Positions 9,801 through 59,964 of a DNA stretch of 64,000 nucleotides are shown piece by piece (position 1 is the first letter of the stretch; each line of letters opens with the position of its first letter). The stretch is taken from the NCBI GenBank assembly GCA_000165345.1, contig CM000436.1:416001-480000 (forward strand), written 5' to 3'. A model generated the notes under the pieces. It ran no database searches. It was not told where the DNA came from and worked only from the letters and a program-made list of their open reading frames with translations. The translations under genes were made by a program, and so were the position numbers.

Positions 9801-11629
9801 GACTTATCATGGTTTCTCAAAGCACCACACTTAAGGATTTAAATGAATATGTAATGATGGAGATAGAAAAAGATAAAGATAACAAGTCACCAGGTAGAGG
9901 ATTGATTAGTGGCTTTGAGTTTGGACTTAGAGTATGTCTGGAAACGGCTTCAGATAGTGATAATTTGTTCCCATTATTGGATCCTCGATGTACAATTCAA
10001 CAACTTCAGCTTATCAATGGATCCAGTTTAATCTTTTCAATAAATTTGGATGATTCAGTAATTAATAGAAAGAGAGAAGAATTAAGGAAATCTCTTGAAG
10101 AGGTTGTGATCTTCCCAAATCAAAACCTTTGGTTGCAAGAAGAGAAAACTTCTCAATATAATGGAATTGAAGATGAAGGAAAATCTTCTGAATCGGAAGA
10201 TTCTAGTTTCAGGCTTCCAGTAGAACTAGAGATGGTTAAGTGCCCAGAATTTCCAGTTTTGGACTTTCATCACTGGTATGAAAATTTCCAGAATTCTCTC
10301 CATCTTTCTCTATATCTATGGGATCCTCTAGATGGTGAATATCACCCGCCTCATTTGGGAGGAGGAGGAGGAGGAGGAGGAACGCATTTGTGCCTGCCTA
10401 ATACAAATCAATATGGAATAATGGAAGCCATGCAGGCGAGCAATAATAGTATAATACGCTCGTTTTCAAGGTATCAAATTAAAGAAGTACATCAAATTCA
10501 TGTGGATCTCCGCTGGCCAGCTATTAAGACTTGGATTTATGTTTGTAATCAAATCAAAGTAGATCCTAGAAGTATTGCTTTAGCAAGAAATGCACTGAAT
10601 CCACTAGATGCTTCTTTGCTAACTTTATTCTCTCTGATTCAAGCCCAGAGACATGATGAATCTATATCTTCAGTAATCAGAAGCTTAAGTTCAGCACATT
10701 ATTATGGAAAAATACCACGTTCTTTAGCTATCCTGGCTCTAAATCTGAAAGGTCACTCCTTTGTTAGTTTAAACAGAAAAGATAAGCATATTCTAACTGT
10801 GACCAATACTGTAAATTGTTCTGAAATACCTAAAGGAAGATACATCCTTCAGGTAGAATCCTGTGATACTGTGGATTCAGTCATACGCAAGTTAATAAAG
10901 AAGGAAAATATTTTATCTCACAGGTCCTTTAATACAAATGGTAAGGATGCCATGCAAACCGGAAATGGCGCCAAAAGTCACACAGATATTTCCAAGCTTA
11001 AATTAAGATTATTCGAAGCGAGTAACCAAAATGATCATGTTGGTGTATATCGAGGAGGGGAAATGATAACAAGGATTTTAAACACAGATGGAATGCAAAA
11101 TACTTCTACTTTTGGAGGATTATCTATTGGCTCTTTTGTGGATTGCTTTAGGATTGAACAAGATTATTCACAAGAAGAGTTGGATTTACTTAAAAAAGGA
11201 GAGTTAGTAAATATTTTGGTTATTCAGGATTCAAGGAGTGGTTTTGGCGGGAACTATGGAGATCATTACCATAATGATGATCATAATTCATTGGCTGGAG
11301 GTACAAGCTATTTAGTAACAATACCAGTAAGTTCAAGATTGGTAGATTTAAAGAATAAACTACAAGAAAGGTTTGATTTGGACGAGAAGATAATATCCAA
11401 ATGGAGATTTTACCGTCTTGAGTCAAAGAGTCTTCAAGGAATTAAGGATAATGATTTAATTATGAATAGTTTTGGAAATAATGGTGTTGGTATTAATAAT
11501 CACTATAGCACAAATGCAAAGAATAACGTGGACATTAATATATATGGTTTTGAGCCTCATACAATTTTATTGGCTCAACAAGTTTTTCCAATTCTACAAA
11601 AGAGTGGCTCTAGACCTCTGAAAATTTAA
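6806..11629 (+). CDS. Ubiquitin carboxyl-terminal hydrolase, USP7/HAUSP-like (N-terminal MATH domain plus USP catalytic domain with large lineage-specific insertions)
   Basis: MATH/TRAF-like N-terminus (FRIMILPKVKLTSGG...WVWLNTRYSVTLINQKD). Cys box GIRNLGATCYMNSLLQSLYH. QHDAQELNRLLCDRLEE box. His box YILHTVVIHQGDVHSGHYYAYIRP. Low-complexity inserts including a (GGA)8 poly-Gly run. Confidence 0.85.
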   Translation: MHTGRNIERPSMEGFSSREKQYDYSNIPGRLQNELEFKVEGFRRRIMEMMNSTEGGTKNRLYSNIHSYKNFNFRIMILPKVKLTSGGSLEGHISAYLEAIPSQNWPSNWVWLNTRYSVTLINQKDYRKSHFMSDIFSFKGENDPKKKLTLEERNYDYSSAGPEADRGWSDFFSLKTLLDPKTGFIDSETETVIFRAGVFPVLCDPVSCGKSNFDHLGTDRSLTGYVGIRNLGATCYMNSLLQSLYHIGRFRKAVYTIPLNPNRVTSGSSCSNTPISRETRPELTPLSACIPKIDDFGEVTPQSISSESNSLAISLLGEASEDAVEWTSNVAKSLFEYESDGIASLESIMSSNACQDYGQNTGVVSGNVSGPGSTIGGNCSASDAGNDQTKISSALQTLFYELQTCSEPVNCRELMRSFGWDASDAFTQHDAQELNRLLCDRLEEEMKNTAVDGSIKALFEGEYENYIECLDVDCTSRRRENFYDIQVDVEGVKSLEESLQRFVEEEILDGENLYEAEGFGKQRAKKGVRFQRFPPVVQFHLKRFQFNIQSMDMVKLNDYFTFPEKLDLSSFVNHNNKGETDTGNIVEGTEKYILHTVVIHQGDVHSGHYYAYIRPKPDSDWFRFDDEKVTLVSSSTAIEDNFGGHEYEVWDYLGNPESDIPKRSKTHSAYILVYVREDQAQDLLSEPIPQEVNPDLVSKYRKEIEMMNLRKRLRQDLNEHVRIQLLLSTSYNISSSCRPKSQGLHQSISSFPWNYIFKCSRDFSLSQFHSELEKRFLNKRMLHNDVPSSSISCNKAFGSHLFLLETNPEGNHTASGGARGMGGLHHHIGYSNGGPTSSTGLSFYTCISSPQGEGISSGNRISDSQRGGAGGMLGRAIGFGSSTSGTRSGDEILMSDLCRRYHRAGLWDSSCPTLYMCLYLDDVSSLLMDRIPPNLPINADGSYLEKRQRIENKLRNFNDNGGGEVLLLLRYFDISNPRINEFSLKYSRNQEIPNLYNLGLIMVSQSTTLKDLNEYVMMEIEKDKDNKSPGRGLISGFEFGLRVCLETASDSDNLFPLLDPRCTIQQLQLINGSSLIFSINLDDSVINRKREELRKSLEEVVIFPNQNLWLQEEKTSQYNGIEDEGKSSESEDSSFRLPVELEMVKCPEFPVLDFHHWYENFQNSLHLSLYLWDPLDGEYHPPHLGGGGGGGGTHLCLPNTNQYGIMEAMQASNNSIIRSFSRYQIKEVHQIHVDLRWPAIKTWIYVCNQIKVDPRSIALARNALNPLDASLLTLFSLIQAQRHDESISSVIRSLSSAHYYGKIPRSLAILALNLKGHSFVSLNRKDKHILTVTNTVNCSEIPKGRYILQVESCDTVDSVIRKLIKKENILSHRSFNTNGKDAMQTGNGAKSHTDISKLKLRLFEASNQNDHVGVYRGGEMITRILNTDGMQNTSTFGGLSIGSFVDCFRIEQDYSQEELDLLKKGELVNILVIQDSRSGFGGNYGDHYHNDDHNSLAGGTSYLVTIPVSSRLVDLKNKLQERFDLDEKIISKWRFYRLESKSLQGIKDNDLIMNSFGNNGVGINNHYSTNAKNNVDINIYGFEPHTILLAQQVFPILQKSGSRPLKI

Positions 11630-12659: not shown

Positions 12660-13562
12660 ATTTCAATTCATTAAAATACTTTGAGCATAACAAAGTTTTA
12701 CTTGATGGCCTTGCATGAGAGAATTAGAGAAAGAAAAAGGGATAAAAATAGTCAAACCTATTTTTGTCTTTAATTTTCAACTCAATTCAAATTCACTTTT
12801 TGTGGGGAAAAAATAAATAAAAAGCACCTTTTATTTATTATAAATAAAAATAGTTTGGCGCCATATGTAATTTAATGATTACAAAAAATTTACATTCATA
12901 AGTAAAATTATCAAAGAACTAATTCGAAGAAGGTAAATAAAGAATAAAAAAATTATTAATTCTAAAATTTGTTTAAGATAATCAAGAAGAAGAAAGAAAG
13001 AAAAAAGAAAGATCAAGTGCTTTTTTAAAAAAAGAATAATAATCAATTCATTAATTAAAGATATAGGTAATATAGTTATAAATAAAGATGTTTAAACTTT
13101 GCTAAATAACCCATTATTTAAAATACTTCTTTATTAACTCAAATAACGAAATAAAAATGTTTTATTTGAAATAAATTCGTAAAATTATAAATTGCATGTT
13201 TTTGGCGCCTTTCCACATTTGCAAATTTGCTTTTGTGCATGACGCAGTAGTTATATACCGGTAATGTCATAAATGCAAATGGCGGGTGAGAAGAAATTAT
13301 TAAAAAAATTAGTTGAAATTATTTTATGACAAAAAAAAAGGAAAAATAAAATAAAATAAAATAATACAAAGTTTTTCCTTTAATTTTTTTGAGATTAGAA
13401 GGGAAAAAAGGAAGGGAAATAGAAGATTTGAGTATAGAAAAATTGCAGATAGTTTTATCTGAAATTAATATTAACAATAGGGGAGTGGTTTTGGTTTATG
13501 AAGTAAATATATTTATATTAATATTTTTTTTTCTAGAGAAATAATCTAAAAGTTTAGAAGAG

Positions 13563-35233: not shown

Positions 35234-35296
35234 GGGCGGGAGCTCACTCACATTCATTACTATTACTAGTCTAAGCATGTTGGCGCCAAAACATGT
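35234..35296. promoter_or_regulatory. E2F-like cluster in the POLD2 upstream region: GGGCGGGAG and the palindromic CATGTTGGCGCCAAAACATG
   Basis: Direct reading. TTGGCGCCAA core (35280-35289) is a perfect palindrome. 140-200 bp upstream of the POLD2 start (minus strand). Confidence 0.55.
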
Positions 35297-49116: not shown

Positions 49117-51714
49117 TTAATGTTCTGGATATCTGACAAATCCAGAATAAGCGTCAATATAGAGTTGTTTAATCTCATTTAAAAGAGGGAATCTTGGATT
49201 AGCTCCCACACATTGATCATCAAGAGCATGGATACTCATAGACTCAACTTTTGACATATAATGTTCTTCCTCTATTCCATGATCTTTAACACACATTGGA
49301 ACTTGTAATGTTTTCTTGAGATTTTGTATTGCTTCAACTAGAATTCTAATATTAATACTCTCTTGATCCAAATTACTATCAAAGCTCTGATTGGACTTGA
49401 AATGCAAGATATCAACAAGCTTTGCATATCTACTCTTTGCTACAGGATACTTGTACTGAGATAGAATGGACTGTTTTGTTGGTCTATTAGATGCATTGTA
49501 AGAAATAATATGTGGTAAAAGTATTGCATTTGCAATTCCATGTGGAATATGCATTTGAGCTCCCAGTTGGTGAGCTAGAGCATGGCAAATTCCAAGAAAA
49601 GCATTTGAGAATGCCATACCAGCAATAGATGAAGCATTGTGTACATATTCTCTTGCCTTGGCATCTGCATTGATAACAGAGTTTGGCAAATGATCGAATA
49701 TAAGTCTCATAGCTTGAATGCAAAGTCCATCAGTGTATTCAGAAGCATAGGTTGCAACAAAAGCTTCAAGGGCATGTGTTAGAGCATCTAAGCCAGTTGC
49801 AGCTGCAAGGAACCTTGGCATAGAAAGAACAAAGTTGGCATCAACAATGGCCATATCAGGAGTAAGCTTGTAAGAAGCAATAGGATATTTGATTCCAGTG
49901 CTGTTATCAGTAATTACAGCAAATGGAGTCATTTCTGCTCCAGTACCAGAAGTAGTAGGAATACAAATAAATCTTTGAATTTTTCCACCGCTGGGAGGTA
50001 GTTTGACAATTCTCTTTCTAATATCCATAAATCTAGTAACAACTTCATTCCATTTGACAGTTGGATGTTCATACATAAGCCTTACAAGCTTGGAAGCGTC
50101 CATAGGAGAGCCTCCTCCAAAACCAATAAGACAATCTGGTTTGCTTACATTTAATCTTTTAACAATTTCCTTGACAGTTTCAACATCAGGTTCAGGAGGG
50201 ACTTCTGCAAACATCTCAGAGGCTACTCCTACAGACTTGAGACCTTCAATAAGATTATCAACAAACCCAAGACTAACCATGACTCTATCAGTAATAATGT
50301 AGGCTTTCTTTAAATTGATTTCTTTGAGATCTTGTAAAGCTTCTTCAAGGCATCCTCTATTGAAATAAATAGAAGGTGGAACCTTAAACCAGGAGATGTG
50401 GTCCCTTCTTTGTACAACTTGCTTGTAATTAAGCAAATGTTTTACACCAATTCCCTCAGCTGTTGAAGTATGGCCCCAGGAACCACATCCCAAAGTCAAA
50501 GAAGGAGTTTGACGGAAGTTAAACATTTCACCCATTGCTCCTTGAGCAGCTGGCATGCAAACTAGAACTCTTCCAGTGGGAATGCTTCTCTGGAACTCAG
50601 TAATTCTGCGTTTTCCTTCATCAGAATTTGGGTCAGTATATATACAAGATGTGTGTCCCAAACCACCAAATTCAACTAAGGCTTTTGCCTTGGAAACACC
50701 ATCATTAAAGTCGCTAGCTCTGATGATTGACAATACAGGACACAACTTTTCGTGAGACAGTTTCTCCCCTCTTCCAATTTCGTTGATTTCAGCAAGAATC
50801 ATAACAGCATCTTTTGGGATATCAATGGATGCCATCTTTGCGATTTCAACTGCACTAATTCCAACAGATTTAGGATTCATATTTCCATTTTCGTCAATTA
50901 ATAAATTCCCAAGTCTCTGGAGCTCATCTTTTGAAGAAATGATATGTACTCCTCTATTTTTGAATCCAGAAATCAACTTATCATATACTGAATCTAGAAC
51001 CACCAAACATTGTTCGGATGCGCAAATTAAACTGTTATCAAATGTTTTGGATAAAATTACTGAGTTCACAACCATTTCCAAATCTGAGAGTTCATCAACT
51101 AATACTGGTGAATTTCCTGCTCCTCCTCCCAAGGCTGGTTTTCCACATGAATAAGCTGCCTTCACCAAAGCCACTGAACCTGTTGCTAGAATGGCACTGA
51201 CAGAGCTATGGTTCATTAAGGAATTACATAAGGAAATACTTGCAACATCGATCCAACCAATACAATCCTCTGGAGCTCCTGCTTCTATTGCTGCATCCCT
51301 GATAATTTTGGCTGCTCTTATGGAGCTTCTAGCAGTTCTTGGATGAGGAGAAAATACTATGCAGTTTCTTGTCTTAAGGGAGATGAGGGATTTGAAGATC
51401 GTTGTAGATGTTGGATTTGTACATGGAGAGATTCCTGCCAAAATTCCCAATGGTTCAGCAACAATATCAATTCCTCCAAATTCATCATGTTCAATTACTC
51501 CTACAGTCTTTGTATTTCTGTACTTATTATAAATATTCTCTGATGCAAAGTGATTCTTTATTATCTTATCCTCTAACAATCCCATTCCACCATCTTCTAT
51601 TGCTAATACTGCCAACTCATATCTTGCACAGTTTGCTGCCAAGGAAGCTCTTTGAAAAATATAATCAACTTGCTCTTGAGAAAGTTTTAAAAAAGCTTTC
51701 TGAGCTACTTCCAC
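49117..51714 (-). CDS. adhE: Bifunctional acetaldehyde-CoA / alcohol dehydrogenase AdhE
   Basis: N-terminal ALDH domain (MEVAQKAFLKLSQEQVDYIFQRASLAANCARYELAVLAIEDGGMG ... ) fused to a C-terminal Fe-ADH domain (GFGGGSPMDASK ... ICIPTTSGTGAEMTPFAV ... HALAHQLGAQMHIPHGIANAILLPHIISYN). 865 aa, the canonical AdhE length. Confidence 0.95.
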   Translation of the reverse strand: MEVAQKAFLKLSQEQVDYIFQRASLAANCARYELAVLAIEDGGMGLLEDKIIKNHFASENIYNKYRNTKTVGVIEHDEFGGIDIVAEPLGILAGISPCTNPTSTTIFKSLISLKTRNCIVFSPHPRTARSSIRAAKIIRDAAIEAGAPEDCIGWIDVASISLCNSLMNHSSVSAILATGSVALVKAAYSCGKPALGGGAGNSPVLVDELSDLEMVVNSVILSKTFDNSLICASEQCLVVLDSVYDKLISGFKNRGVHIISSKDELQRLGNLLIDENGNMNPKSVGISAVEIAKMASIDIPKDAVMILAEINEIGRGEKLSHEKLCPVLSIIRASDFNDGVSKAKALVEFGGLGHTSCIYTDPNSDEGKRRITEFQRSIPTGRVLVCMPAAQGAMGEMFNFRQTPSLTLGCGSWGHTSTAEGIGVKHLLNYKQVVQRRDHISWFKVPPSIYFNRGCLEEALQDLKEINLKKAYIITDRVMVSLGFVDNLIEGLKSVGVASEMFAEVPPEPDVETVKEIVKRLNVSKPDCLIGFGGGSPMDASKLVRLMYEHPTVKWNEVVTRFMDIRKRIVKLPPSGGKIQRFICIPTTSGTGAEMTPFAVITDNSTGIKYPIASYKLTPDMAIVDANFVLSMPRFLAAATGLDALTHALEAFVATYASEYTDGLCIQAMRLIFDHLPNSVINADAKAREYVHNASSIAGMAFSNAFLGICHALAHQLGAQMHIPHGIANAILLPHIISYNASNRPTKQSILSQYKYPVAKSRYAKLVDILHFKSNQSFDSNLDQESINIRILVEAIQNLKKTLQVPMCVKDHGIEEEHYMSKVESMSIHALDDQCVGANPRFPLLNEIKQLYIDAYSGFVRYPEH

Positions 51715-52620: not shown

Positions 52621-53556
52621 ATGAATAGTGAATGCAAGACTTTAGAAAAAGATATAGGTCTTGCTTATTGTAAAGTACTCTTGGTGGGTGTTGGAGGAAT
52701 TGGAACAGAAATCCTTAGATGTCTGATATTCTCCGGATTTAGACGAATTGATATCGTTGACTATGACTACGTTGAAGTCTCCAATATTTCCAGACAACTA
52801 TTTTTCAACCTTGGAGATGAAGGAAAGTCCAAGGTGCATGTTTTGGCGGCAAACGCAACAAACCACTTCAAGTCAGCAAAAGGATTAGAAATCAAGCCTT
52901 TTCATTCTGACATTTCCGACTTTTTCTCAAAGTTCAATGTGACCCCATCCGACTACAAAATCATTCTTTCTGGTTTGGATAATATTCATGCAAGAAGGAC
53001 ATTGAATGCTATAGTAATGACGCAATCTAGTCCTCAAGCTTATCCAATACTATTAGATAGTGGTACTGAAGGATTTAATGGCCATTCTAGAATCATTATT
53101 CCGGGAGAAACATCCTGCTATGAATGTACAATGGGACTCAACGTCCAAGATACTAACTTTCCACTCTGTGAAATCAAAGAATTCCCTAGAACACCTATTC
53201 ATTGTATAGCATATGCAAATTTTATATATGAGGAAGATGAACAAGACAATGAGGACTTTAAAAATCACAAAATTCTTAAGATTTATCAACTAGCACAAGA
53301 ACATGCAAAATCTTTTGGAATTCAGGGAGTCACTTTAGAATTAACAAAACAAATTATTGGAAATATCTTCCCAACACTTCTTTCTACAAATACAATTATT
53401 GCATCCTCTGTGGTTTCCCAGGCCATTAAGTATCTAAGAGGCTCTGGACAAGCCAAGAACCTTAAAAACTATTTTATGTATTATGGTCAAACAGGTATAT
53501 ATTCATCCTGCTTTGAAATTCACAAAGACGAAAACTGTATTTTTTGTAAGATATAA
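52621..53556 (+). CDS. UBA3: NEDD8-activating enzyme E1 catalytic subunit UBA3, lacking the C-terminal ubiquitin-fold domain
   Basis: CKVLLVGVGGIGTEILRCLIFSGFRRIDIVDYDYVEVSNISRQ ... DSGTEGFNGHSRIIIPGETSCYECTMGLNVQDTNFPLCEIKEFPRTPIHCIAYA ... FGIQGVTLELTKQIIGNIFPTLLSTNTIIASSV aligns with human UBA3 including the catalytic Cys (PMCTIAS vs PLCEIKE). ORF stops 2 residues after the ENCxxC block, where UBA3 normally continues for about 95 aa of UFD. Confidence 0.85.
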   Translation: MNSECKTLEKDIGLAYCKVLLVGVGGIGTEILRCLIFSGFRRIDIVDYDYVEVSNISRQLFFNLGDEGKSKVHVLAANATNHFKSAKGLEIKPFHSDISDFFSKFNVTPSDYKIILSGLDNIHARRTLNAIVMTQSSPQAYPILLDSGTEGFNGHSRIIIPGETSCYECTMGLNVQDTNFPLCEIKEFPRTPIHCIAYANFIYEEDEQDNEDFKNHKILKIYQLAQEHAKSFGIQGVTLELTKQIIGNIFPTLLSTNTIIASSVVSQAIKYLRGSGQAKNLKNYFMYYGQTGIYSSCFEIHKDENCIFCKI

Positions 53557-53718: not shown

Positions 53719-56700
53719 TTAATTGTTCTTTTTTGTTGTATTCACAGGCTCCCAAGATAAAAAGCTTTCAACATTAGCATCTCCACCTTTAGCTACAGAA
53801 GAGTTGAACCACGCTTCTCCAGCATTAAGTCCCCAAGTTGAACTTATATTTCCAATATACTGAGACCTCCCCATTTCTGTGTATAGTCCAGCAATACCTT
53901 TTGATCCTTCAAGCGCTTTTTGAGCTTTAGGAGGTATATATGGGGTTCTAACCTTCTCATCCAAGTAAATGAATCCAGAATACGATGAATTGATCAATTC
54001 GATCGCTAGATCTTTTGAAATACCAAGATTTGTAAGATTCCCTGAAATCCCATCCCATCTATTATTCATTGGTGGTATTGGAGCTCTTCCATCATTTCCA
54101 CTTGAATCTCCAAAATTTCCATTATCTATTTCTGTAGAGTTTATTGTTCCTATTAATGCATAAGGAGCTAATCCTTGGCATGAACATTCAATCACAAATT
54201 GCTTGCTTTCCTGTTTACTTGGAGAAATATTACTTGTACAAAGATCTTCTCTCCAAACTGAGTCACTTAACATTGAACAACCTATATTTGTCATATTTAC
54301 TGGAATCTCAAAAGAAAGAGGAAGTGAAAATGTTACTGTAGGAGTTCCATATGCATAATAATCAATTGAACAAAGATAAAGAGCTCCTCCTCCTATTGGA
54401 ATAGGTCTTGAGACTTTTCTAACAGCATTCTCTATTAACATATTCGAAATATATTTCCTTGGGTAAGTATAACTAGAAATTGTTGCTGATGTATTTGGAC
54501 AACTTCTTGAAGCAAATTCTAGCATTTCTGAATCGTATTCTTCCGGATATGCTTGGAAGTAAATAGATTCAACAGGGGAAAGTTTCTTTATCTCATTAAA
54601 TCTAAAGCCTGAAATTGCCATTCCGTTCAAACTTGTTGATCTTCTCGTAAATACTTCATCTAAAGTAATTACAGAAAGCGAAATACCACTTTCTTTTCCT
54701 TTCCAATCCAAAGAATCTTTATTATAAGTCCAAAATGAAAATCTATTACCCACAGATTCAAGCATATGCGAGATGGTTGACTCTAGATTACTATCTCCAA
54801 GTATTCTACTCCATCCATTGCTTGCAACTAATAGATCCAAAGTCTCTAGAACAAGATTTGAGACACTAGGACTACTGGTACATTCTGCATTCAAAGTAAT
54901 ATTCATCAATATTTCAAAAGGTCTTGTGACATCCAAATTAAGTTTAGGATTTTCGTAGGCAACTTTGTAAATCTTCTTAAGAATATACAGAGACATAAGC
55001 TTGAAAGAAGCAAAGTCATAGCCTTGAGGAATATTCTGGAGTTCAAATGCTGTGGAATAGATCGACTCAAAATAGTTTTTCCATATTAACAAGTTATCTT
55101 TGTTTTCCTCAAAAAGAGCACTCACCAATTGAATTGTTTCTATTGGTGTTGTATAAGCCAATGGATGTGTAACCACAGCTATTGCATCTTCAATCTCTGA
55201 TTGAGAATCTTTAGTCTTCATCAAAACTTTGGAAAATGGACAAGGGAAAGAATTCAACAGACTCAAGTCATTGGAACACCAATGAGAGTAGAAAGAGTCT
55301 TTGAATGGAGGTTGGCAAGGAATATAACAACCAGAAAATGTTACTGTTTGGGCTCTAATGTATACAAACCATTCTTTGCTGGTAGCTGGGAGCCTTAAAG
55401 AGGGTGGAAGCTGAGTCAAAGAATCTCCAAGGAAAATGACTGTGGAATTCTGTCCAATAATTTGCGATGATGATGCGATAATTCCAAAACTTGCAAAACC
55501 TTCATCTTGCTCTGTGTTTGAAAATGCAAGATTGCTAAGAGTGAGGAAAATTGAGTCCCCAATAGAAGCTCCTTTTTCCTCTGGTTGATATAGAGAAAGC
55601 TTTCCAACAGTTGGAGGAAAGTCAACAGCTCCAAATTCTATAGATACAAATTCATTTGTATTGGGTTGTGGATTACTTTGTATTAAGGTTTCATACGAAA
55701 TAAAGGTTGTTCTAGGAGAACTGGATTCTGAAATGATTAATTCATGAATACAATTTGAGAATTTTGAGTTTTGTAGAACTGGATACTTAGTAGTTATGAT
55801 CATAGATCCTCCTAGATTTGAAAAATCAGCAATTGAAATCTTGGAAACACTTGGAGTCCCTGAAACTCTTCTTATTGATTCACAATAAAGATATGCTGAG
55901 ACATAGAATTCTTTGTTAATACTAATTCCAGAAGTTTTCCCTAGAACTACTTTGTGTCTGATCTGTAGAACTTTGTTAAAAGGGATTAAAAATGAATACT
56001 TTGTATTATGAAGATGATCCCAAGCCTTTACTGTTGGGTAAATAATGAAGATCTGTTGAACAGTTGTGGGAATCATTGGTATCATTGGAATTTTGGAACA
56101 ATATTCTGGTGATAGAAAGCCTGAAATTGGAGGAGAAAAGAGCTTAACTGAAATACCCTTTGAAGGACTTGTATAAGAAATAGTATCAGTGAAAATTGTT
56201 ACTGTTATAGCAAGATAGTCAGTAGTCTTAAAAGATGAAGCTTTCAGAGTGGTTACATGTTCTTCTGGAGCAGTATTCACCATTCCAATAAACTGATTCT
56301 GGCTATCTGGAGTGTTTAAGCATGTAACAAATTCATTGTTTAGCTTACATGATGTAATCTCGTCTCTAGGTACTTCAATCATATCTTGCCAAGTATTTGT
56401 GGATGTAGTCTTTTTGGTTTTACACTGCCAAGCTGTTTTGAGTGAGTACATATCTCTTTTCATAGGTACGAATCTAGCGGCTCTACAAGTCATTCCTGAT
56501 CCAGGAGTTGCATAGTTTCCAAAGTTTCTGTTAATATACCTTTCGCTAAACTGATAGAATTCACTTCCAAGAGTAATTGAAGTATCATGATTCACAAAAG
56601 ATGGTAAATTATAGAAGATAAAAGGTTGGTTTGAAGCAGTTGCAATCAAAAGAGAGTGAAGAAGACCGTTTCCAGGGTATATCTTCTTAAATTTTCGTGT

Positions 56701-58239
56701 CTCATCATTTATATCTGATCTAAAGGTTCCTTTGTGAGTATAGCTGACATATTGGATTAGGGATGACAATACAAAAAAGTAACTTATAGGAGATGGAGCT
56801 GAAAGATATTTGATCGGAGGGAGGTAGAACGGGGATTTAAATTGGGTATTTGAATTTCTGAGATGGGTTCCACATAACCCCACACCTGCATGCACACCGG
56901 TATAGGAAGATTTGGGAGAATATGGGAAGGTACCATTATAATAGCATCCTCCAAGAAAATTATTTGAAAATGTGAGATATGTTGAAATAGTGTTTTGGAG
57001 TTGTCCAGGGTAGTTTTTTCCATTTAAGAATGGTCTTTTAGAGAAGTACATGCTAGAGAGTACAGTGTTTCTGGATATAGTAGAGTCATTTTTTGAGTAT
57101 TTTGAAATAAACCTTTTTGGGGGTAAATCTTTAAGGTAATTGATATTGAATGGATTGGAAGAATTATTAGCATAATTCCAAAAAGGGTCCATAGGGTAAT
57201 AGAATAAATAGTTATTTACACAGTTTGTACTACTGTTGGATGGAAGATTAGATGGCATAACCACTCTAATAGGTGAGACACCTAAGGGAATGTTTGTCCA
57301 ACCAAAAGGTACTGCAGAATTATATTCGTTGGTAGTAACATTATTTTGGATTGCAATGAAAGCTCCTTGAGCAGAGTTTATAATAGGGGGTTGGAAACCT
57401 GCAAACCTTTCTTTAGGCTTCCAAATCCCAGATGTTAGGTCAGAATCATATCTTCCATATGAAAAGGTCATGTTAAAGAGATCAACATATGAGTGATCTG
57501 GAGGATCAGATTCTTGGATTGAGCTTCCAGGAAGGACCTCTGGAGGAAGGTCTATTTTATATTTAAATGGTAGAACAACCATATCTGAGAAAGAATTAGC
57601 CAAATTTAGGACACTTGCAACATTAACCCAATTTTCACTATAATAATGTTGCTGGAGCCAGGTAAGGACTGGATCAGGAGAAGGAGTAGTTGAGACACCT
57701 TCTTCCACAATACTCGCAAGTGCATCTCCAATTATAGTTCCTGGTATGAGGAAAGTGAAGTTAGTAGCTGAGGTAGATTGGATCATGGTTGGCTCAAAAT
57801 TATTCAAGTAATCTACAACCATGTTGCAGGCAACATAGTAGCTTGAGGTTTGGTTAACAGAGATGGATCCAAAAGCTGTAGAGATCCAGATTGGGTCAGT
57901 TAAGCCTGCATGATTACATGAGAATGAGATTGGATTACTTTCAAAAACATAGTTAATATTCTTGAGGCTGATTACAATTGGGTACATATAAGAGCAAGGA
58001 GTTAAAATAGCTGGGAATCCGATAGTAGACCATAAAGAAAGGTCGTATCTAGGCTGGTTTGCTAAATCATCAATTTTGATATCCATTCCCCATGCACCTT
58101 GGGCTATTGTACTATTTGGAAACATGGGATTGACAGTGTAGCTTTCTGGCATAAGCTGGGAGAGGACTAGGCTATTTTTTAGCCAGGAAATTTGAATAAG
58201 AAAAATAAGGAGTAGGCATGGGATTCTCCTTAATAGCAT
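53719..58239 (-). CDS. Large secreted protein (1506 aa) with cleavable signal peptide, Cys-containing and rich in N-glycosylation sequons. Lineage-specific extracellular protein
   Basis: N-terminus MLLRRIPCLLLIFLIQISWLKNSLVLSQ is a textbook signal peptide. No internal TM helices. Dozens of NxS/T sequons. No recognised domain. Confidence 0.6.
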   Translation of the reverse strand: MLLRRIPCLLLIFLIQISWLKNSLVLSQLMPESYTVNPMFPNSTIAQGAWGMDIKIDDLANQPRYDLSLWSTIGFPAILTPCSYMYPIVISLKNINYVFESNPISFSCNHAGLTDPIWISTAFGSISVNQTSSYYVACNMVVDYLNNFEPTMIQSTSATNFTFLIPGTIIGDALASIVEEGVSTTPSPDPVLTWLQQHYYSENWVNVASVLNLANSFSDMVVLPFKYKIDLPPEVLPGSSIQESDPPDHSYVDLFNMTFSYGRYDSDLTSGIWKPKERFAGFQPPIINSAQGAFIAIQNNVTTNEYNSAVPFGWTNIPLGVSPIRVVMPSNLPSNSSTNCVNNYLFYYPMDPFWNYANNSSNPFNINYLKDLPPKRFISKYSKNDSTISRNTVLSSMYFSKRPFLNGKNYPGQLQNTISTYLTFSNNFLGGCYYNGTFPYSPKSSYTGVHAGVGLCGTHLRNSNTQFKSPFYLPPIKYLSAPSPISYFFVLSSLIQYVSYTHKGTFRSDINDETRKFKKIYPGNGLLHSLLIATASNQPFIFYNLPSFVNHDTSITLGSEFYQFSERYINRNFGNYATPGSGMTCRAARFVPMKRDMYSLKTAWQCKTKKTTSTNTWQDMIEVPRDEITSCKLNNEFVTCLNTPDSQNQFIGMVNTAPEEHVTTLKASSFKTTDYLAITVTIFTDTISYTSPSKGISVKLFSPPISGFLSPEYCSKIPMIPMIPTTVQQIFIIYPTVKAWDHLHNTKYSFLIPFNKVLQIRHKVVLGKTSGISINKEFYVSAYLYCESIRRVSGTPSVSKISIADFSNLGGSMIITTKYPVLQNSKFSNCIHELIISESSSPRTTFISYETLIQSNPQPNTNEFVSIEFGAVDFPPTVGKLSLYQPEEKGASIGDSIFLTLSNLAFSNTEQDEGFASFGIIASSSQIIGQNSTVIFLGDSLTQLPPSLRLPATSKEWFVYIRAQTVTFSGCYIPCQPPFKDSFYSHWCSNDLSLLNSFPCPFSKVLMKTKDSQSEIEDAIAVVTHPLAYTTPIETIQLVSALFEENKDNLLIWKNYFESIYSTAFELQNIPQGYDFASFKLMSLYILKKIYKVAYENPKLNLDVTRPFEILMNITLNAECTSSPSVSNLVLETLDLLVASNGWSRILGDSNLESTISHMLESVGNRFSFWTYNKDSLDWKGKESGISLSVITLDEVFTRRSTSLNGMAISGFRFNEIKKLSPVESIYFQAYPEEYDSEMLEFASRSCPNTSATISSYTYPRKYISNMLIENAVRKVSRPIPIGGGALYLCSIDYYAYGTPTVTFSLPLSFEIPVNMTNIGCSMLSDSVWREDLCTSNISPSKQESKQFVIECSCQGLAPYALIGTINSTEIDNGNFGDSSGNDGRAPIPPMNNRWDGISGNLTNLGISKDLAIELINSSYSGFIYLDEKVRTPYIPPKAQKALEGSKGIAGLYTEMGRSQYIGNISSTWGLNAGEAWFNSSVAKGGDANVESFLSWEPVNTTKKNN

Positions 58240-58815
58240 TGTGACTCTGTTATAATAAGTAATTTTTTAGGTTTAAATTTTCAGAGATTTCAATGCTTTC
58301 CACTGTTTCATCAGGTTTAATTCTTTTTTTGAATTTTGCAGAGTGGGTTTTTTCATTTTTGATTTACCACACTTTTTTCCTTTTTCAAAAAAAAAAAAAA
58401 AAAACAACTAATTTGTTATAAACACTAATTTACAATACTTTTCTAGGAGAATTCATAGTATTAATTTTCTTTAAAATAGCTTAGATTTTTAGTATTATCT
58501 ATTCTAAGACTTTTAATAGTAAAGAATGTTAGCTTCAATTGAGCTCAATATTTAGAAATGAACATAATAACCTCCTCGACCCTTTTAAAATAAAGTTTAC
58601 CACTCATTATCAAACATCTTATAGGTGGATTTTCAAATTTAAGATGAAAATATTCTCAATATAAATTTCAGATTAATTCTAATAATTTTTACTTCAATAT
58701 ATTAGGTCATATATGTGGAATGCATGTTTTTGGCGCCAATTCGAAGTTTAATACCGGTAAATATTAAGTAGAAAAAAATGAACCGGGAAAATATTGTGCC
58801 TTTAAAAAGTGGGGA

Positions 58816-59911
58816 TTGCAAAAATGCAGTATCGTCTGTGAGGATATTTTATCCAAAAGATATTGTGAATTAGGAAATAGGTATTTAAGGTTAGATTGGT
58901 TAGTTTTATTAATTTTTGAGAAGGAAACAAGGATGAATTTCCCTTACTTTTTCTGGATTATATTTTCAATATTGATTTGCAAAGTTAGATTAGAGGTTGT
59001 CATAGAGAATGAAGACCCAAAAGCGGATATGAGTGCACTGGAACATTTAGATTCAAGCTTCATGCAAGACAGAGGGAGTGTGGGGATTGAGAATTTGAGT
59101 TCTAATATTGATTTATCTGCAGGTTTTGCAGATAATGAAGCACAGGATAATTCGAATTTAAGCATGGATAAACCAATTGAGGGGATTGATAATGAGAAGT
59201 TTTCTATCGAAGGTTTGGATACAAATGATGGTTTTGAAGAAGTAAAAGATTCAAGTTTCCAAAATCAGCTTGATATTGAGGAAAATAAAAATAGTGATCA
59301 TTCAGTAGGAAATGGTATATATTCAGAAGATAGTATTTTGAATGGAAGCTTTGAGAGTAAGTCAGTTGATTTGAACGATGTAGATAAAGTTTCAGCAGAA
59401 AACAATTTAAATGATAAATTTGAAAATTTGAGCTTTTCAGATAAAAGTGTTGGAGGTTTTGATGAGCAGGGCAAAAATAATGATTTTCCTGAAATAGAAG
59501 AGAACCAGAAAGATTTTTCCAGCGTTGGAAAAGATTTTTCATTAGCAAATAAAGAATCAGGTGAAGAAAATTTACCCGGGGAATACACCTCAACAACAGT
59601 AGTGGAAAGAATGGACTCAGATCAACAAGATTCTCGGTCTAGCATGTTTCGAGAAAGCACTCTTCCAACTCCGCCTCCACAAACAACTGAATCCACAGAA
59701 GTGACTGGTGGTGGTGGTGGTGGGGGAAATGGCAATGGAGGAGGATTCCCAAACACTTCAACATCTGTACCAACAGAAACAACAACAGGTTCCGGAGGTA
59801 GTGGAGGGGGTAGTGGAGGAGGTAGTGGAGGAGGTAATGGAGGAGGTAGTGGAGGAGGTAATGGAGGAGGTAGTGGAGGCAGTGGAGGCGATGGCGATCA
59901 AAACCAAGTGG
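58816..59911 (+). CDS. Mucin-like type-I membrane glycoprotein, exon 1 (signal peptide most likely from the Met at 58933; acidic S/N-rich ectodomain; Thr/Pro then Gly/Ser-rich stalk)
   Basis: MNFPYFFWIIFSILICKVRLE signal-like segment. Ectodomain ends TLPTPPPQTTESTEVTGGGGGGGNGNGG ... TSTSVPTETTTGSGGSGGGSGGG ..., a mucin-like O-glycosylation stalk. Donor G|GTAGGTTA at 59912 (the same GTAGGTTA donor as Sld5 exon 1). Confidence 0.6.
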
Positions 59912-59964
59912 GTAGGTTAAATTTTTATGATATTCTATACGAACTCTGACTTTTATTTTTTTAG

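Follow-up and report, generated by a model that had tools for sequence, protein, structure and literature searches.

A predicted GAIN domain in cgd8_1740, a female-enriched GGC family member of Cryptosporidium parvum

The GAIN domain is the module that defines the animal adhesion receptors, and REJ proteins function in gamete recognition. GAIN domains are also found in unicellular eukaryotes, with more than eight in Tetrahymena thermophila and others in Dictyostelium; these were found by recognisable GPS motifs, and the GPS always immediately precedes the first TM helix (Arac 2012, PMC3321182). Because the domain pre-dates animals and is present in another alveolate, the ciliate, its vertical inheritance into Cryptosporidium is plausible. 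We found no report in the searched literature that ties GAIN or GPS to Cryptosporidium or to the Apicomplexa. The GGC family, whose name reportedly comes from the 2004 C. parvum genome annotation, appears in that literature only as an uncharacterised 'putative virulence' family and is usually bundled with telomeric 'virulence' families. Here we analyse one of its members, in a 64-kb stretch of DNA (the window).

Gene identity, the GGC family and secretion

The gene under study occupies the following position:

53719..58239, minus strand: complete CDS of cgd8_1740, 1506 aa plus stop (ORF listing, EAK89379.1 identity, primer matches)

As the initial annotation had it, this is a real ORF of 1506 aa, a single uninterrupted frame on the minus strand that starts with ATG in the ORF listing. 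It is cgd8_1740 of C. parvum chromosome 8. Its product agrees at every one of its 1506 residues (100% identity) with EAK89379.1 (P0020) from C. parvum Iowa II, which is annotated as a 'paralog within GGC gene family'. The qPCR primers published for cgd8_1740 lie inside the ORF, at 55616-55637 on the minus strand and 55499-55520 on the plus strand, and the matches of the primers for cgd8_1630 to cgd8_1760 are collinear with the gene order across the window. The gene is labelled 'Secreted GGC gene family protein' in PMC10629705 and in Tandel 2019. Since it was annotated previously, the ORF itself is no discovery, and the protein, being identical to an annotated GGC family member with full-length paralogues, is not the orphan it had been taken for.

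Four C. parvum genes are annotated as 'secreted GGC': cgd2_2610, cgd5_3570, cgd7_5500 and cgd8_1740. An exhaustive HMMER profile search of 1.84e9 representative proteins returned four clusters, all from Cryptosporidium, and recovered clades A, B and C together with a 2608-aa C. canis protein; the family was found only in this genus. Orthologue distribution, a check proposed in the initial annotation, gave the same restriction for cgd8_1740: its orthologues occur across the genus and range from that of C. hominis (16 of 1506 residues differ) to that of C. andersoni (52% identity). The full-length paralogue clade shows 28-31% identity to cgd8_1740, the clade B member P0009 aligns with it over 98% of the length (E=9.9e-192), and the clade C proteins come from gastric species only. 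The family is defined by a short motif:

56929..56952, minus strand: GGC motif GGCYYNGT (aa 430-437), which holds the invariant C432 and the conserved sequon N435

Written as GGC[YF][YF]NGT, this motif shows no exception among the 24 family sequences aligned, one of which is the 2608-aa C. canis protein. With the rest of the family cgd8_1740 also shares the signal peptide, a length of ~1500 aa and, with the cgd5_3570-type clade, whole-length collinearity. It does not differ from the annotated GGC entry; what is added here is the GAIN structural assignment and the assignment to the female stage.

The N-terminus carries a predicted secretion signal:

58159..58239, minus strand: signal peptide MLLRRIPCLLLIFLIQISWLKNSLVLS, followed by Q (aa 1-27; hydropathy and the -3/-1 rule, putative cleavage site)

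The sequence runs from MLLRR through a hydrophobic core, which contains the top Kyte-Doolittle window of the protein (1.91 at aa 8-26), to VLS followed by Q. V-L-S occupies the -3/-1 positions, the Gln that follows stays in one alignment column throughout clades A, B and C, and the S/C-Q junction after the signal peptide is conserved across the GGC family. The earlier call of a signal peptide, made here heuristically from hydropathy, the -3/-1 rule and the alignment, is supported by these features, and so is the reported lack of a TM segment. Every other 19-residue window scores at most 1.44 on the Kyte-Doolittle scale and the C-terminus is hydrophilic, so that neither a TM segment after the signal peptide nor a GPI-type tail is present. 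By hydropathy, TM segments, GPI-like tails and C-terminal hydrophobic segments are absent from every GGC family member. From these sequence features we infer a protein that looks secreted and soluble.

The initial annotation had described dozens of NxS/T sequons and a heavily N-glycosylatable protein. There are 21 sequons, against a composition expectation of 20.0 and 20.06 +/- 3.94 in 5000 shuffles (P(>=21)=0.45), which amounts to no enrichment. The positions of the sequons are non-random: 13 of the 21 recur in every one of the eight full-length clade A orthologues, and N160, N256, N435 and N1113 are common to all three paralogue clades. The term 'scattered' understated the cysteines: the mature protein has 24, and not one of them varies among 20 sequences from clades A, B and C.

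The predicted GAIN domain

The claim that no domain is recognisable holds for sequence searches, in which Pfam returned no family at E<=1 and the PDB no match for the cgd8_1740 protein. It does not hold once structure is used: for the C-terminal third, a GAIN fold is predicted. The assignment comes from an AF2 model built on a 13-sequence alignment (mean pLDDT 71) and from Foldseek comparisons; this structural check thus yielded a GAIN-like C-terminal third, with the N-terminal 830 residues modelled at pLDDT 37. The relevant segments are:

55225..55659, minus strand: beta-rich region (AF2 strands) with a four-cysteine knot (C971, C975, C988, C1000), aa 861-1005, preceding the GAIN domain
54730..55203, minus strand: predicted GAIN subdomain A, helical bundle, ~aa 1013-1170
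54151..54714, minus strand: predicted GAIN subdomain B, twisted beta-sandwich, ~aa 1176-1363
54151..54279, minus strand: GPS-like motif, aa 1321-1363, with Cys/Trp spacing compared to CL1 and G-L-A where H-L-T/S is canonical
53722..54150, minus strand: hydrophilic conserved tail, aa 1364-1506, in the place of the TM region of canonical GAIN proteins

In the model, an alpha-helical subdomain A is followed by a twisted beta-sandwich subdomain B, the arrangement that characterises the GAIN fold. The GPS-like motif reads C1321-x7-W1329-x4-C1334-x17-C1352-x-C1354-Q-G-L-A1358-P-Y-A-L-I, to be compared with C801/C820/C832/C834-x-H836-L837-T838 in the GPS of CL1 (Arac 2012, PMC3321182). Four Cys and a Trp stand at the canonical spacing, the first Trp of the motif is missing, and the disulfides are putative. 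C1321, C1334, C1352 and C1354 do not vary across clades A, B and C, and the AF2 model has a break between the last two strands exactly at A1358, the canonical scissile position. Pfam GPS (PF01825) matches four paralogue sequences at the homologous site, in each case below threshold (E 0.0016-0.076, 14-19.4 bits, cut-off 22.5). The Pfam GPS and GAIN models do not match the cgd8_1740 protein itself even at E<=10, and a search of PDB sequences with the GGC family profile found no GAIN protein.

The beta-rich region ahead of the GAIN domain was modelled as strands with block pLDDT of 63-92 and is the best-conserved segment between paralogues (43% identity to clade B, 19% of positions family-invariant). 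The Foldseek alignments cover the entire HormR+GAIN chains of BAI3 and BAI2; any equivalence of aa 861-1005 to HormR is tentative. The global TM-scores of these comparisons are low (0.18-0.36) and the rmsd is high, the alignment behind the model is shallow at 13 sequences, its mean pLDDT is just 71, and the cgd8_1740 protein has no significant sequence-level match. All this could be expected if the likeness were a modelling artefact or a convergent helix-plus-sandwich arrangement, in a lineage-specific fold unrelated to GAIN, an explanation that we consider quite unlikely beside the GAIN assignment.

Compared with the adhesion GPCRs (latrophilin/CL1, BAI1-3, CELSR, GPR126, CD97; PDB 4DLQ, 4DLO), cgd8_1740 shares the predicted subdomains A and B, the GPS-type Cys/Trp spacing and the kink at the scissile position. 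It differs in having G-L-A for H-L-T/S, in the missing first Trp, in similarity below the Pfam thresholds, in its apicomplexan host lineage and in lacking a 7TM region or any TM helix, with a conserved 140-aa hydrophilic tail instead. PKD1 and sea-urchin REJ resemble it in the very large (>1000 aa) extracellular region ahead of the GAIN/GPS module, and enrichment of cgd8_1740 in gametes is a further parallel with REJ; however, cgd8_1740 has no TM or channel-associated segments, and the comparison covers the GAIN module alone. REJ, PKD and lectin domains were not found in it by Pfam. Unlike the GAIN proteins of Tetrahymena and Dictyostelium, the GGC proteins have no TM helix and have diverged beyond what BLAST or HMMER can detect.

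Two features common to all described GAIN proteins fail in cgd8_1740, namely the position just before a TM helix and the H-L-T/S triad. Beyond the GPS-like motif lie 143 hydrophilic residues, with no TM helix directly after the GAIN domain and none of the 7TM or 11TM regions of the adhesion GPCR and polycystin-1 families downstream of it. The stop codon of the ORF is 149 residues beyond the GPS-like site; the gene after it, listed ORF 52621-53556, has the opposite orientation. The tail is 54% identical to that of C. andersoni, was modelled with AF2 confidence <50 and contains W1395, G1397, N1417-S-S, G1422-F, G1457-R, W1469-G, W1496 and P1498 as invariants among seven sequences.

The H-L-T/S/C triad is absent: C. 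parvum and all intestinal clade A species have G1356-L1357-A1358, clade B has A-I-S/T at the cleavage position, and His occurs in no family member. Given the loss of the catalytic residues (G-L-A for H-L-T), a non-cleaving scaffold or interaction module is the most likely interpretation, and the cgd8_1740 GAIN domain most likely lacks autoproteolysis. A GAIN domain that still cuts near L1357, releasing or tethering a 149-residue C-terminal fragment as in adhesion GPCRs, appears extremely unlikely. Ser/Thr at +1 is retained in clades B and C and in the C. andersoni orthologue (AI-S/T, SI-S), and the -2 residue of BAI3 is Arg, not His, with a different general base likely there (Arac 2012, PMC3321182). 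However, for the proposed mechanism the +1 nucleophile has to be a hydroxyl or a thiol (Arac 2012, PMC3321182), whereas cgd8_1740 and all intestinal clade A orthologues have Ala at +1 and Gly at -2, and no GGC family member has the -2 His.

Transcription and the divergent neighbour

Transcripts of cgd8_1740 appear late. By qPCR they are at <=8e-8 at 2-24 h and at 0.8-3.7e-6 at 48-72 h, and RNA-seq gives log2CPM values of 4.28 in asexual parasites, 8.26 in in-vitro females and 5.52 in in-vivo females. In sorted female gametes versus asexual parasites, the log2FC is +3.98 (~16-fold) for cgd8_1740 and +6.48 for its neighbour cgd8_1750 (Tandel 2019 supplement 4). Stage-specific expression, another check proposed in the initial annotation, is late and female-enriched. 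All four GGC genes are up-regulated in females, and both the 'Female in vitro only' top-500 list and the 'SporoVSinvitro-Female' list include cgd8_1740. Between in-vivo and in-vitro females its log2FC is -2.75, and this lower in-vivo expression is not obviously what would be expected of a major oocyst-wall constituent.

The neighbour lies across a divergent intergenic region:

58240..58932, no strand: intergenic region common to cgd8_1740 and cgd8_1750, with GCATG and the E2F-like palindrome TTGGCGCCAA (58730-58739)

The shared region proposed earlier thus exists, with its end at 58932 and not at 58815, because the signal peptide of cgd8_1750 starts at ATG 58933 and the TTG listed as its start is an artefact of how the ORFs were listed. 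The distance from what had been termed a bipartite promoter element (GCATG plus TTGGCGCCAA, 58722-58739) is 202 bp to the cgd8_1750 ATG and 492 bp to that of cgd8_1740. The sequence TGGCGCCA is present in four copies in the window against 0.08 expected, three of them located between listed long ORFs. Both genes fall into the female-only set of the comparison of sporozoites with in-vitro females, but are in separate parts of the co-expression cluster file, presumably in different clusters. The suggestion of a co-regulated pair is consistent with up-regulation of both genes in females; since both are female-enriched, loose co-regulation and an extracellular role in the sexual stage are plausible.

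These data bear on two other readings of the gene. A zoite invasion adhesin, stored in sporozoite or merozoite micronemes, dense granules or small granules, would have a late peak as the next zoites are provisioned, and the 48-72 h peak could cover late merogony; a large, secreted, multi-domain, Cys-rich build is typical of apicomplexan adhesins, and adhesion receptors contain GAIN domains. We consider this unlikely: it was in sorted female parasites that the enrichment was seen, the comparison of sporozoites with in-vitro females puts the gene in the female-only set and not in the sporozoite or shared sets, and the transcript is near background 2 h post infection. Very unlikely, in our assessment, is a host-directed virulence effector, exported to or acting on the host cell in asexual infection. 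Lists of 'putative virulence genes' routinely place the GGC family beside MEDLE, SKSR, WYLE and FLGN (PMC8687662 Table 1; PMC11293552), cgd8_1740 had SNPs in all the human isolates of PMC10629705, and the protein bears a signal peptide. Nevertheless, the sequence is highly conserved, down to the 16 of 1506 differences from C. hominis, with orthologues even in gastric species; the locus is single-copy, with no chromosome end in the window; transcripts are low at 2-24 h, when host remodelling starts, and are female-enriched; and a 165-kDa protein with 24 invariant cysteines would be an improbable translocation substrate. Tagging of the paralogue cgd5_3570 was unsuccessful, which weighs neither way (PMC8687662).

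Proposed role and significance

We propose, with a probability of about 0.7, that the macrogamont secretes cgd8_1740 as an extracellular scaffold or adhesion protein, and that its GAIN module does not cleave. The N-terminal signal peptide would direct the protein into the secretory pathway, where it would fold with as many as 12 conserved disulfides and a few conserved sites for N-glycans, to be released as a soluble ~165 kDa protein with neither a TM nor a GPI anchor. Its C-terminal third would form the GAIN domain, from the helical subdomain A to the beta-sandwich subdomain B that ends in the GPS-like motif. This domain would most likely serve as a rigid non-cleaving scaffold or interaction module, linking the large N-terminal ectodomain to the conserved 140-residue tail, and not as an autoproteolytic switch. 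Transcription is low in early asexual stages, rises at 36-72 h and reaches the ~16-fold enrichment in sorted female gametes alongside the three paralogues. The product would be an extracellular structural or adhesive component secreted by the macrogamont, and candidate sites of action are the PV lumen, the surface of the gamete, the wall-forming bodies and the oocyst.

By analogy with REJ, the GGC proteins might together form a Cryptosporidium-specific set of soluble, TM-less GAIN proteins of the female gamete, involved in gamete recognition, fertilisation or zygote/oocyst-wall assembly, in which the paralogues with Ser/Thr at +1 (the cgd5_3570-type clade B, and clade C) would still self-cleave without His. 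This extension is speculative and, in our estimate, improbable; if true, it would be the first case of GAIN autoproteolysis uncoupled from a membrane receptor.

New with respect to the searched literature are a predicted fold and a life-cycle stage for a Cryptosporidium-specific family with no reported domain, and the predicted GAIN domain, with neither cleavage residues nor a membrane anchor, is an unusual variant. If confirmed, these assignments would widen the range of GAIN among alveolates and provide a natural 'scaffold-only' GAIN for comparison with the adhesion GPCRs. They would also take the GGC family out of the 'host effector candidates' and place it with the 'female-stage extracellular machinery', a class that includes transmission-blocking targets (oocyst formation, fertilisation) in a parasite for which there is no vaccine and drugs are poor.

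Identity and predicted secretion of the protein

53719..58239, minus strand: ORF of cgd8_1740, uninterrupted, with an ATG start and 1506 codons

The window has a G+C content of ~24-38% and contains long ORFs without introns, and the 1506-aa ORF described in the initial annotation is real. Its product is 100% identical, at every residue, to C. parvum Iowa II EAK89379.1, a record named 'Predicted secrete protein, paralog within GGC gene family of secreted cryptosporidium…'. The published cgd8_1740 qPCR primers (Mauzy 2012, PMC3305300) match within the ORF at 55616-55637 and 55499-55520, and those of cgd8_1630, 1650, 1680, 1690, 1700, 1710, 1720, 1750 and 1760 match in order along the window. The protein identity, the primer matches and the primer order together identify the gene as cgd8_1740 of C. 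parvum chromosome 8, which both PMC10629705 and Tandel 2019 call a 'secreted GGC gene family protein'. The ORF is already annotated and is no new gene; nor is it an orphan, being an annotated family member with orthologues and paralogues. The gene is absent from the supplements of PMC13599311, PMC8687662 and PMC13241007.

The N-terminus (MLLRRIPCLLLIFLIQISWLKNSLVLS/QLMP) holds the top 19-residue hydrophobic window (Kyte-Doolittle 1.91), and the runner-up scores 1.44. The C-terminal end (…SWEPVNTTKKNN) is hydrophilic. By these heuristics, the protein fits a signal peptide without a TM segment or GPI anchor, in agreement with the signal peptide and lack of TM segments reported initially. A hydrophobic C-terminal segment was absent in every GGC family member examined.

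The protein contains 21 NxS/T sequons, compared to 20.0 predicted from composition and 20.06 ± 3.94 in 5000 shuffles (P(≥21) = 0.45). The shuffle test rules out sequon enrichment, and the 'dozens of sequons' of a heavily N-glycosylatable protein are reduced to chance level. Nevertheless, 13 of the 21 sequons are kept in 8/8 full-length orthologues, and those at N160, N256, N435 and N1113 are common to all three paralogue clades (see below). All cysteines of the mature protein (24/24) are invariant across 20 sequences of these clades. Conserved sequons at chance level, together with invariant cysteines, fit an extracellular protein that is rich in disulfides and modestly N-glycosylated rather than a mucin-like one.

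Family composition and distribution

Orthologues of cgd8_1740 (clade A) are present in C. hominis (16/1506 residues differ), C. tyzzeri (at least 15 differences), C. meleagridis, C. canis and C. felis, and are 90% identical in chipmunk genotype I, 63% in C. bovis, 62% in C. ryanae and 52% in C. andersoni. Members of clade B are collinear with cgd8_1740 and 28-31% identical to it; the C. parvum member, on a 1.09-Mb contig, is presumably cgd5_3570. Clade C is represented only in the gastric C. muris, C. andersoni and C. serpentis. When a profile of aa 330-1506 was run exhaustively with HMMER against 1.84 billion representative proteins, it recovered four clusters only, all from Cryptosporidium: the three clades and a 2608-aa C. 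canis protein described below. A word-indexed homology search with the family alignment added no sequences. Neither blastp nor tblastn detected a second GGC copy inside the window. In the tables of Tandel 2019, four C. parvum genes carry the GGC annotation: cgd2_2610, cgd5_3570, cgd7_5500 and cgd8_1740.

Conservation runs along the entire length of the protein, with a between-paralogue peak at aa 861-1005 (43%) and 36-38% in the helical region after aa 1005; the GGCYYNGT motif (aa 430-437) is invariant, in the form GGC[YF][YF]NGT, in the aligned family sequences.

Several homologous proteins deviate in length. A C. canis protein of 2608 aa (P0016) contains two units bearing the GPS motif discussed below (…KCKCNAITYYGLKG… and …ILCSCNSIGEYGLL…), and the second scores higher against Pfam GPS than any other family sequence (19.4 bits, E=0.0016). 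The arrangement suggests either that the whole GGC/GAIN unit was duplicated in tandem or that the gene model is a fusion. Compared to the 1506-aa consensus, P0004 (C. felis, 1285 aa) lacks ~225 N-terminal residues; in P0005 (C. canis, 1209 aa), unrelated sequence stands at the end and the C-terminal GAIN/GPS part is missing; and P0023/P0026 (C. meleagridis, 1477 aa) lack the signal peptide. The truncations probably arose in gene modelling or assembly and are not biological.

A predicted GAIN domain

Pfam searches with cgd8_1740 yielded no match at E ≤ 1 (whole protein) or E ≤ 10 (three sub-segments), and those with five full-length paralogues and nine GAIN-region sequences yielded none above threshold. 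Searches of PDB sequences, by phmmer with cgd8_1740 and by hmmsearch with the family GAIN-region profile, returned only noise. On reading the sequence, however, we spotted that aa 1321-1363 (C…W-x4-C-x17-C-x-C-QGLAPYALI) resemble the GPS, the motif with the cleavage triad (canonically H-L-T/S) at the end of the GAIN (GPCR autoproteolysis-inducing) domain of adhesion GPCRs. At the homologous site, Pfam GPS (PF01825) was matched below threshold, in paralogues only, by four sequences (E 0.0016-0.076; best score 19.4 bits vs the 22.5-bit cut-off), and it was the sole Pfam family matched by more than one paralogue sequence.

The resemblance was then tested by modelling aa 861-1506 with AlphaFold2 on 13 family sequences (mean pLDDT 71, pTM 0.70). 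In the model, a beta-rich segment comes first; aa ~1013-1170 then form a helical bundle and aa ~1176-1363 a beta-sandwich, the GPS half of which has a block pLDDT of 75-93, before a low-confidence tail. The break between the final two strands (aa 1344-1357 and 1359-1363) falls precisely on A1358, where canonical GAIN domains are cut. Only two Foldseek matches were significant, both to HormR-GAIN structures: BAI3 (E=1.2e-6) and BAI2 (E=4.4e-6).

List given with the aa 861-1506 model, in order
BAI3, 15.8
CELSR1, 12.9
GPR126, 11.9
CD97, 11.7
GPR110, 11.6
Latrophilin-3, 11.0
CD97, 10.3

In CL1, the GPS comprises C801/C820/C832/C834-x-H836-L837-T838, with disulfides C834-C820 and C832-C801 (Arac 2012, PMC3321182); the counterparts in cgd8_1740 are C1321/C1334/C1352/C1354-Q-G1356-L1357-A1358. 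On the predicted structure, the C-terminal region is very probably a GAIN domain. An artefact of modelling, which would sit well with the null sequence searches, appears improbable. The initial description of an orphan, domain-less and heavily glycosylated protein was partly right: the lack of a recognisable domain holds for sequence searches but not once predicted structure is used, and the other two attributes fail. Upstream, aa ~749-873 form a probable beta-sandwich; the model of aa 28-900 reached a pLDDT of only 37.

Unlike canonical GAIN domains, the family lacks the cleavage triad, which is replaced by G-L-A in intestinal members of clade A, S-I-S in C. andersoni, A-I-S/T in clade B and A-I-S/G in clade C; none of the aligned members has His at -2. 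Cleavage proceeds by nucleophilic attack of a Thr or Ser hydroxyl (Arac 2012, PMC3321182), so that, with Ala at +1, this mechanism cannot operate in cgd8_1740. Autoproteolysis that is still active, for which the hydroxyl residues of some relatives might speak and this Ala does not, is highly improbable. Moreover, the GPS of described GAIN proteins always directly precedes the first TM helix (Arac 2012, PMC3321182); in cgd8_1740, the GPS-like motif is followed by a conserved hydrophilic 143-residue tail, after which the ORF ends. The lost triad and this tail point to a TM-less GAIN module that is predicted to be catalytically dead. More than eight GAIN domains occur in Tetrahymena, also an alveolate (Arac 2012, PMC3321182), which makes an ancient origin of the Cryptosporidium domain plausible. 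A literature search for the GAIN domain and Apicomplexa, or GAIN/GPS and Cryptosporidium, found no relevant paper.

Genomic neighbourhood and female-stage expression

49117-51714, minus strand: ORF matching the cgd8_1720 primers, 'Aldehyde/Alcohol dehydrogenase' in the Tandel 2019 tables
58816-59949 (as listed), plus strand: cgd8_1750, annotated 'Uncharacterized Secreted Protein'
59204-59596, minus strand; 59639-60451, minus strand; 60096-60461, plus strand: three ORFs of 121-270 aa overlapping cgd8_1750 or one another in low-complexity, repeat-rich DNA

The TTG start of cgd8_1750 at 58816 is an ORF-listing artefact; its signal peptide (MNFPYFFWIIFSILIC…) begins at the ATG at 58933, and the Gly-rich GGGSGGGN tract near its C-terminus corresponds to a tandem repeat of 12 nt. 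Of the published primers, the reverse one matches in five overlapping registers at 59803-59872, and the forward primer shows an apparent one-base insertion near 59677 relative to the window. The three overlapping ORFs are probably spurious because their translations are leucine/histidine-rich repeats, typical out-of-frame readings. The E2F-like palindrome TGGCGCCA occurs four times in the window (10966-10973, 12856-12863, 35281-35288, 58731-58738) vs 0.08 expected from shuffles; 3/4 copies lie between listed long ORFs, including the one in the cgd8_1740/cgd8_1750 divergent region, which is flanked by GCATG (58722-58726). An A tract of ~18 nt (58389-58406) is located mid-region, ~150 bp upstream of the start codon of cgd8_1740. 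Among the sharpest late/female switches of the neighbourhood is cgd8_1720, which rises from log2CPM ~0.7-2.4 (near zero) in sorted asexual parasites to ~14 in females (Tandel 2019) and, by qPCR, from 0 at 2-6 h to ~1.5e-5 at 48 h (Mauzy 2012, PMC3305300).

Expression values were taken from published supplements, namely, qPCR with four replicates per time point (Mauzy 2012, PMC3305300) and sorted-parasite RNA-seq (Tandel 2019). By qPCR, cgd8_1740 ranges from 0 to 8e-8 at 2-24 h, 1.7e-7 to 1.2e-6 at 36 h, 0.8-3.7e-6 at 48 h and 0.8-1.6e-6 at 72 h.

Mean log2 CPM in sorted parasites (Tandel 2019): asexual; female in vitro; in vivo; log2FC female/asexual
cgd8_1740: 4.28; 8.26; 5.52; +3.98
cgd2_2610: 6.33; 8.34; 6.91; +2.02
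cgd5_3570: 4.41; 8.20; -1.35; +3.79
cgd7_5500: 2.06; 6.59; -1.35; +4.53
cgd8_1750 (neighbour): 0.96; 7.44; 4.43; +6.48

The late, female-raised transcripts contradict a lack of expression, and the published data broadly support the co-regulation of cgd8_1740 with cgd8_1750 suggested in the initial annotation, both genes being female-up (+3.98 and +6.48) and on the 'SporoVSinvitro-Female' list of Tandel 2019. That list contains all four GGC genes along with cgd8_1750, none of which is on the sporozoite or shared lists; cgd8_1740, cgd5_3570 and cgd2_2610 are also among the 'Female in vitro only' top 500. A zoite invasion adhesin, compatible with a secreted protein carrying an adhesion-GPCR-type domain and at odds with these lists, is unlikely.

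We favour, with a probability of about 0.7, the reading that macrogamonts would secrete cgd8_1740 as a soluble, disulfide-rich glycoprotein, that its GAIN module would serve as a scaffold or for interaction without cleaving itself, and that its site of action would be extracellular, during the sexual, zygote or oocyst phase. A main weakness of this composite is that expression in females is lower in vivo than in vitro (log2FC -2.75; Tandel 2019). A host-directed effector, as the placement of GGC genes among 'virulence effector' families would have it, is quite improbable beside the female-stage expression. New here are the predicted TM-less, cleavage-dead GAIN and a coherent pattern of female-stage expression across the entire GGC family, which together argue for moving the GGC genes out of the 'virulence effector' families.
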